794 bases of DNA from Escherichia coli (GTDB taxonomy: Bacteria; Pseudomonadota; Gammaproteobacteria; Enterobacterales; Enterobacteriaceae): assembly GCF_003334765.1 (NCBI RefSeq), contig NZ_QOWT01000098.1, one strand, 5' to 3'. A program made the translations under genes and the position numbers. Numbering within the stretch: the first letter of the stretch is position 1; the number at the start of each line of letters is the position of its first letter. The notes beneath the pieces were generated by a model, which was not told the DNA's origin, did no database searches, and saw only the letters and a list, made by a program, of their open reading frames with translations. Positions 1 to 794 of this stretch are shown here, one piece after another.

Positions 1-79
1 ATGACTCATGATGAACCCTGTTCCATGGCTCCAGATGACAAACATGATCTCATATCAGGGACTTGTTCGCACCTTCCCT

Positions 80-118
80 AAAATAAACATTGCTTCATAT
101 GTTCAACTATGCGTTAAT
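80..118 (+). promoter_or_regulatory. Predicted sigma70 promoter of the csp gene: A-rich UP-like element (80..89, AAAATAAACA), -35 TTGCTT (90..95), 17-bp spacer, -10 GTTAAT (113..118); predicted TSS about 125..127
   Basis: Hexamers read directly from the sequence with canonical 17-bp spacing. The layout (AT-rich UP tract abutting a TTGCxT -35 and a cTTAAT-like -10) resembles the cspA promoter as I remember it. The predicted TSS sits immediately upstream of the cold-box-like element. Not experimentally mapped. Confidence 0.45.
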
Positions 119-126
119 GATTGCGT

Positions 127-143
127 CGGTTTGAAGAACAGAC
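127..143 (+). promoter_or_regulatory. Cold-box-like element at the 5' end of the leader (CGGTTTGAAGAACAGAC)
   Basis: Sequence CGGTTTGAAGAACAGAC closely resembles the cspA leader start (recalled as CGGTTTGACGTACAGAC), differing only in a central trinucleotide. In cspA this region is implicated in transcription attenuation and autoregulation. Comparison is from memory, not alignment. Confidence 0.5.
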
Positions 144-256
144 GATATACGAAGTAGTTTACTAAAGCAGTTCTCATTTCAGGTGTTATTCACTTATTCC
201 TTCTTTGAGTCTCTCCAATTAAGTACGAAGTCGTTTCTGTTATGCAAACCATTTAT

Positions 257-269
257 GCCGAAAGGCTCA
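257..269 (+). promoter_or_regulatory. Upstream box GCCGAAAGGCTCA, conserved cspA-family leader element; can form a GCC/GGC stem with a GAAA (GNRA) tetraloop
   Basis: Exact GCCGAAAGGC at 257..266, followed by TCA. The cspA, cspB, cspG and cspI leaders share a 13-nt upstream box (GCCGAAAGGCACA in cspA) just 5' of the SD that enhances translation. The short self-complementarity is visible directly. Confidence 0.6.
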
Positions 270-273
270 AGTT

Positions 274-278
274 AAGGA
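274..278 (+). promoter_or_regulatory. Shine-Dalgarno / RBS for the csp CDS (AAGGA), 7-nt spacer to ATG 286
   Basis: AAGGA at 274..278 within TAAGGAAT, optimally spaced to the start codon. Confidence 0.8.
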
Positions 279-285
279 ATGTAGA

Positions 286-501
286 ATGTCAAATAAAATG
301 ACTGGTTTAGTAAAATGGTTTAACGCTGATAAAGGTTTCGGCTTTATTTCTCCTGTTGATGGTAGTAAAGATGTGTTTGTGCATTTTTCTGCGATTCAGA
401 ATGATAATTATCGAACCTTATTTGAAGGTCAAAAGGTTACCTTCTCTATAGAGAGTGGTGCTAAAGGTCCTGCAGCAGCAAATGTCATCATTACTGATTA
501 A
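286..501 (+). CDS. cspB: Cold-shock protein, CspA family (CspB-like), 71 aa, complete ORF with stop TAA at 499..501
   Basis: ORF-track translation [71 protein letters not shown] has the cold-shock domain hallmarks: RNP1-like KGFGFI and RNP2-like VFVHF motifs, and the MSxKMTG(I/L)VKWFN N-terminus. The 71-aa length and the N-terminal MSNKMTGL match E. coli CspB as I recall it, not the 70-aa CspA, CspG or CspI. Start ATG 286 is preceded by SD AAGGA (274..278) with a 7-nt spacer. Paralog identity was not verified by search. Confidence 0.9.
298..312 (+). promoter_or_regulatory. Downstream-box-like motif ATGACTGGTTTAGTA within codons 5-9 of the csp CDS
   Basis: Matches the cspA downstream box (recalled as ATGACTGGTATCGTA) at 12 of 15 positions. 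The element is reported to enhance translation at low temperature, but the proposed base-pairing with 16S rRNA is disputed. It may simply reflect conserved codons for KMTGLV. Confidence 0.35.
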
Positions 502-612
502 AATTCATCGCTCGTCTGTATACGATAACGAAGAAGGCTGATGCCTGAGTAGAGATACGGACAGAGTAGTGAATATTGGATCTCTTTAATAAAAAGTAAG
601 GAGGTCCAATAC

Positions 613-648
613 ATGAAACAATGGCTAGCATATTTGGCAAAATCTTAA
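613..648 (+). CDS. Hypothetical 11-codon small ORF (MKQWLAYLAKS) preceded by a perfect 9-nt Shine-Dalgarno TAAGGAGGT (597..605) with a 7-nt spacer
   Basis: SD TAAGGAGGT is a full complement of the 16S rRNA 3' end and is ideally spaced to ATG 613; the ORF ends at TAA 646..648. No homology is recognised. The call rests only on the exceptional RBS, so it could be a leader peptide, a small protein, or coincidence. Confidence 0.2.
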   Translation: MKQWLAYLAKS

Positions 649-794
649 TCAGGAAAAGTATGCTAACCATTGTGGTGAAGTGCAGGTTTGCTGCATGAAT
701 AGTTTTACAGCAGAAGCTAAGGAAGGTGCGAATAAGCGGGGAAATACTTCTCGGCTGACTCAGTCATTTCATTTCTTCATGTTTGAGCCGATTT

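Follow-up and report, generated by a model that had tools for sequence, protein, structure and literature searches.

A start codon facing away from Escherichia coli cspB very likely belongs to the transposase gene of an IS5 insertion

The E. coli insertion sequence IS5 is 1,195 bp long, ends in 16-bp imperfect inverted repeats, uses CTAA as its target sequence and has an extremely weak native promoter (PMC11677980; the weakness also in PMC11894529). Its first 68 bp form the ins5A promoter region, PIS, which precedes the first codon of ins5A (PMC11894529). The promoter has been described with a -35 hexamer GTGCGA and a -10 hexamer GATCAT, 17 bp between them and transcription starting at an A, and its IS5 part spans -41 to +30 (PMC11894529; the -35 hexamer in the Fig. 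7C legend). In K-12, most of the ins5A mRNA is read-through transcript of a promoter outside the element, at a single locus (PMC11677980, PMC11894529), which is nmpC (PMC11677980). Where IS5 activates the glpFK and fucAO operons, ins5A is oriented as the activated operon (PMC11894529).

At bglGFB, glpFK, fucAO and flhDC, IS5 insertions upstream of the promoter alter the expression of the adjacent operon. The IS5 in the DNA studied here is like them in that its target is of the CTAA type and lies in AT-rich intergenic DNA with a regulatory role. The window, i.e. the whole stretch of E. coli DNA that was analysed, is 794 nt long (Table 1). Only positions 78..720 were cspB-locus DNA, as judged by megablast against 5,426 complete E. 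coli genomes. This segment of 643 bp was 100% identical to K-12 MG1655 and to many further strains, and the matches ended abruptly at 78 and 720 in all genomes among the matches listed. Its K-12 counterpart lies in the Qin prophage, with cspF on one side and ynfU on the other. In the window the segment was flanked by IS5 ends on both sides, in the order IRL, segment, IRR, and at both edges the transposase gene was on the minus strand.

Table 1. Features located in the 794-nt window. L001 is the locus in K-12, L002 in Z226-5, L003 in ES4 and L004 in E. coli FDAARGOS_1290.
Feature	Position	Strand	Basis
IS5 left end (IS5 positions 77..1)	1..77	-	77/77 identity to annotated IS5, L004 1401..1477
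First three codons of ins5A/insH, ATG AGT CAT (M-S-H)	1..9	-	ATG at IS5 69-71
AGGG, weak Shine-Dalgarno-like motif, 6 nt (TTCATC) before the ATG	16..19	-	Sequence
ins5A transcription start A, IS5 position 42	36	-	Mapped onto the window from the PMC11894529 numbering
Upstream in-frame ATG, would give 338-aa MFVIWSHGTGFIMSH...	43..45	-	ORF open after TGA 57..55
-10 hexamer GATCAT of the ins5A promoter	44..49	-	PMC11894529; 17 bp downstream of the -35
IS5 IRL, 16 bp, GGAAGGTGCGAACAAG	62..77	-	Sequence; 16-bp imperfect inverted repeats per PMC11677980
-35-like hexamer GTGCGA (within the IRL), weak ins5A promoter PIS	67..72	-	PMC11894529, located in the window
CTAA, IS5 target-site copy, left junction	78..81	.	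K-12 reads ...ggatgtCTAAaataaac here
cspB segment, Qin-type lambdoid prophage	78..720	+	100% identical to K-12 MG1655
cspB mRNA, cspA-type thermoregulator match	125..517	+	Rfam RF01766, 158.8 bits, model positions 1-428
cspB CDS	286..501	+	ORF list and annotation
CTAA, IS5 target-site copy, right junction	717..720	.	Sequence
IRR GGAAGGTGCGAATAAG, partner of the IRL	721..736	-	Sequence
IS5 right end, same orientation as the left end	721..794	-	97.4-98.7% identical to the L003 and L004 right ends

The identity of the left edge was clear from comparison with known IS5 copies. No mutation was found in positions 1..77 relative to annotated copies, and positions 1..81 were identical to the IS5 copy in Z226-5 (81/81, E = 2e-38). 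With the first 150 nt of the window as query, 2,505 E. coli genomes gave 8,938 matching places, and the matches listed lie on features annotated as 'IS5-like element IS5 family transposase'. The left ends in ES4 and FDAARGOS_1290 were also identical to that of the window, and these elements are 1,195 bp long with a 981-nt transposase CDS. A CDS of the same length is likewise annotated in Z226-5.

Compared with IS5 of E. coli, the window had the same left end over 77 nt, including the IRL, the -35 and -10 hexamers, the base of the transcription start and the start codon at position 69. It had the same CTAA target, and the partner IRR was present at its other side. The terminal inverted repeats, GGAAGGTGCGAA(C/T)AAG, were found at both edges (IRL 77..62 on the minus strand, IRR 721..736), and the two possibly come from different IS5 copies. 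In the element itself there was no difference as far as the window reaches. Judged by these identities, positions 1..77 are the canonical left (IRL) end of IS5, an element that is already known.

On the other strand, an ORF at 1..81 (MTHDEPCS...), antisense to the IS5 leader, was considered as a candidate and treated as a chance ORF. The plus-strand ORFs overlapping there on the IS5 of FDAARGOS_1290 were both short, with 58 aa (1305..1481) and 42 aa (1408..1536).

The minus strand of the window ended in ...ACAGGGTTCATCATGAGTCAT. As the original prediction had described, an ATG at 9..7 was followed by AGT (6..4) and CAT (3..1), i.e. Met-Ser-His, and then by the window edge. The AGGG that it had placed about 7 nt upstream was also found (19..16), but at a spacing of 6 nt.

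In FDAARGOS_1290, the transposase CDS assigned by PGAP (429..1409, minus strand) begins at locus position 1409, which corresponds to position 9 of the window. The prediction that a gene starts at the window edge and is divergently oriented was thus upheld, since the annotated transposase CDS starts on the same ATG. The CDS encodes a 326-aa protein, MSHQLTF..., in which QLTFADSEF... comes after M-S-H. This protein matched the NCBIfam model NF033581 'IS5 family transposase' at residues 24-313 with 365 bits (cut-off 140), a score that belongs to the protein of the identical FDAARGOS_1290 copy, the window itself giving residues 1-3 only.

The published promoter numbering led to the same codon. With the IS5 part of the promoter spanning -41 to +30, the ATG occupies +28..+30, equal to IS5 69-71 and to window 9..7. 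A transposase start at IS5 position 69, after a 68-bp promoter and leader, matched both the PGAP CDS start and the definition in PMC11894529.

Taken alone, the ATG with its AGGG signal was no better than chance. The two strands of the 794-nt window contained 44 ATGs, and a 3-nt purine Shine-Dalgarno-like core was present 5-14 nt upstream of 5 of the 44. The start signal was counted as real because its context was IS5, as established by the identity and by the annotated CDS start on the same ATG. We consider it very likely that the IS5 DDE transposase gene ins5A (insH, 326 aa) begins with the ATG at 9..7, in an IS5 inserted at CTAA in the cspF-cspB intergenic region. The rest of the gene beyond the three codons was deduced from identical IS5 copies elsewhere, and we infer that the IS5 copy in the source genome is of full length.

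Read on the minus strand from 77 downwards, this end would present first the 16-bp terminal inverted repeat, the site of transposase action. The IRL would be overlapped by a sigma-70 promoter of very low strength, with the -35 at 72..67 and the -10 at 49..44. The transcript would start from A36 and would carry a 27-nt leader with the AGGG at 19..16 before reaching the ATG at 9..7. The AGGG in this leader is a plausible weak ribosome-binding motif. The promoter, its transcription start and its weakness are taken from the literature, and the IS5 identity, the coincidence of the start codon, the insertion site and the protein family come from the present analysis.

Two small features were noticed in this region. 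A GATC, which is palindromic and a Dam methylation site, was located at 46..49, inside the -10 hexamer GATCAT. The leader of ins5A also contained a six-codon upstream ORF at 26..6 on the minus strand, ATG GAA CAG GGT TCA TCA TGA (MEQGSS*), of which the stop overlaps the ins5A start codon (ATGA). This ORF could have arisen by chance or could play some part in translational coupling.

At the left junction, K-12 reads ...gatggctggatgtCTAAaataaacattgc and the window reads ...IS5 end/CTAAaataaacattgc. The insertion point preceded the cspB ATG by 208 nt and the cspB transcript start, as set by the RF01766 match, by about 47 nt. Of the 4-bp target duplication that IS5 makes at CTAA-type sites, the inner copy adjoined each of the IS5 ends as CTAA (78-81 and 717-720), and the outer copies would lie outside the window. 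With IS5 at CTAA in the cspF-cspB intergenic region, the window runs into IS5 and not into cspF, which presumably still lies beyond the left IS5.

IS5 was also found near cspB in two other strains. In ES4 (L003 1318..2520), it was at the same CTAA between cspF and cspB, in the opposite orientation, so that the end of IS5 next to the cspB promoter is the right one, with the bent DNA. The ES4 element was complete, with 1,195 bp (L003 1322..2516) and CTAA on both flanks. In Z226-5 (L002 3086..4288), IS5 was at another CTAA, equivalent to window 663..666 and 54 bp upstream of the right junction of the window, in the same orientation as the right-hand IS5 of the window. The same-site IS5 in ES4 suggests a recurrent target site. 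On the sequences compared, the small A/T-rich cspB region is evidently a recurrent target of IS5. In the literature searched for IS5, cspB and cspF in combination, only two papers mentioned all three, and no report of an IS5 insertion at the present site was found.

The junctions themselves were searched for in several collections. By megablast in the 5,426 complete E. coli genomes, neither the left junction (1..150) nor the right junction (640..794) gave a place with at least 80% query coverage. When plasmids and phages were searched with the whole window, nothing matched across either junction, and the matches were to 78..720 or to the IS5 ends separately. The left junction was absent from the GTDB representative genomes in an exact 32-mer search, and from the JGI metagenome contigs in an exact 25-mer search. 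Z226-5 was first reported as a match to 78..794 in two pieces, which would have meant the same right junction, but this was a gapped artefact, and re-alignment put its IS5 at the CTAA at 663-666. Compared with IS5 elsewhere, what was not found in the collections searched was the combination of the site, the orientation and a second IS5 end 643 bp away.

Other explanations of the ATG were weighed against a transposase start. The original prediction had offered it as the beginning of a divergent cold-shock paralog, cspF or similar, from the divergence of cspB and cspF in K-12 over a few hundred bp and from the Met-Ser start of Csp proteins. Both of these premises were correct: the intergenic region between the two start codons in K-12 is 300 bp, and M-S was borne out in the Csp products examined (M-S-R in CspF). 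In its place, its divergence from cspB and the M-S start of its product, the gene in the window is indeed like cspF. It differs in the third residue (His versus Arg), in the start codon (ATG versus TTG) and in its DNA, which is IS5 and not the K-12 intergenic sequence. Continuity with the K-12 cspF-cspB intergenic region failed at 78, where identity ends and K-12 has ...gatggctggatgt versus the IS5 end, and positions 1..77 were 100% IS5. The cspF start of K-12 is 92 nt beyond the junction where the window enters IS5, and it reads TTG-AGT-CGT (CspF begins M-S-R-K-M-T-G) versus ATG AGT CAT here. Extension of the sequence and translation of the minus strand had been proposed as a check, with the lack of a Csp-like translation as the outcome that would speak against a paralog. 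Done on identical IS5 copies, this gave the 326-aa transposase, which lacks a cold-shock domain, and no Csp-like translation. The product did not have the marks of the CspA family (about 70 aa, MSxKMTG... and the RNP1 motif KGFGFI), no Csp family was among its NCBIfam matches, and it gave no BLASTP alignment with CspB at E <= 100. The IS5 identity, the NF033581 match and the absence of CspB similarity ruled out a csp paralog at ATG 9..7, and we give it practically no chance.

Within IS5, translation of the transposase might begin at the ATG at 45..43, to give 338 aa, with the Met at 9..7 as internal residue 13. The open frame reaches back to 45..43 (MFVIWSHGTGFIMSH), which makes a mechanical ORF of 338 aa. 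Older database entries gave InsH as 338 aa. With this in-frame ATG and its open frame, the initiation codon at 9..7 is not strictly proven. Read-through transcripts from outside promoters (nmpC; PMC11677980) would include the AUG at 45..43. On the other hand, this ATG shares bases with the -10 hexamer and precedes the published transcription start (IS5 42, window 36), and it would thus be missing from the native transcript. PGAP gave the 326-aa version in all four copies inspected, PMC11894529 places the first 68 bp upstream of the first codon of ins5A, and NF033581 starts at residue 24 of the 326-aa protein, so that the extension brings no conserved sequence. We regard the 338-aa form as unlikely and retain the ATG at 9..7 as the start. 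A further doubt is whether a full-length transposase gene follows it, which need not be the case if the 77 nt were a solo end of IS5 or a truncated one, if IS5 and the cspB segment formed a circle or a tandem unit, or if the window were an artefact of assembly. The window edges lie 77 and 74 nt inside the multi-copy IS5, a pattern expected of a short-read contig broken in a repeat and bounded by IS copies, and the window is probably such a contig. The right end may belong to another IS5 copy or to the same one as the left end. The order IRL, segment, IRR, with both ends in the same orientation, would fit a single IS5 with the segment in a circle or tandem, and it would fit two direct copies equally. 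The absence of both junctions from the complete E. coli genomes (5,426) also speaks for an arrangement other than two copies. Against this stand the 77 nt without mutations relative to annotated IS5 copies, and the independent insertions at nearby CTAA sites in ES4 (78-81) and Z226-5 (663-666). Given these two strains, two ordinary direct IS5 insertions in the chromosome would be the simplest reading, and a solo end, a circle or tandem, or an artefact appears improbable to us.

On the preferred reading, the ATG at the edge is the known start of ins5A. This is ordinary, well-known biology, with no new csp paralog, and it matters mainly for correct annotation; the unusual aspect is only the particular pair of IS5 insertion sites around cspB. 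Both window edges are in a multi-copy repeat, so that conclusions drawn from them concern IS5 rather than the local locus. In the source strain, IS5 parts cspB from its usual neighbours.

If cspF lies beyond IS5, the geometry described for glpFK and fucAO is matched: ins5A and cspF run in the same direction, and the right end of IS5 faces cspF. For cspB, it is the IRL end that faces the promoter, not the bent IB/IRR end. The separation of cspB from its neighbours might alter the regulation of cspF or cspB or might favour IS5-mediated deletion or amplification of the segment.

A stronger proposal would be that the IS5-flanked 643-bp cspB segment is a functional unit, i.e. a mobilising or copy-number cassette, or that the insertion was selected for rewiring the cspF/cspB promoters. 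We consider this highly improbable. As a functional unit, the segment would be a composite transposon, or else a cassette with a cold-shock gene that IS5 can amplify or excise. With selected rewiring of the divergent promoters, the right end of IS5 with its bent IB region would be directed toward cspF.

The match to RF01766, the cspA thermoregulator, was full-length and took in the 5' UTR and the coding region of cspB. Its beginning at 125 put the cspB transcript start near that position. By similarity to cspA, the core promoter of cspB would be TTGCTT (91-96) and GTTAAT (114-119), and this putative promoter, together with the adjacent A/T-rich stretch, would be intact in the window. The putative core promoter and the 5' UTR (from about 90 onward, with the transcript from 125) were not affected by the insertion. 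A consensus promoter scan of the window recovered neither the cspB promoter nor that of ins5A; both are non-consensus promoters.

Some minor observations were made around the two csp genes. In K-12, the RefSeq CDS of cspF (L001 1196..1408) has a TTG start and not an ATG, and a 29-codon (90-nt) CDS annotated as 'hypothetical protein' is found just downstream of cspF. Downstream of cspB in the window, a near-perfect Shine-Dalgarno sequence, AAGGAGG (598..604, plus strand), was followed 8 nt on by an 11-codon mini-ORF from ATG 613 to TAA 648. Its product would be MKQWLAYLAKS, and the K-12 RefSeq record has no annotation for it. A weak terminator-like hairpin, GTGCAG-GTTTG-CTGCAT, with a T-rich tail was located at 680..705 on the plus strand, some 25 nt short of the right IS5 junction.
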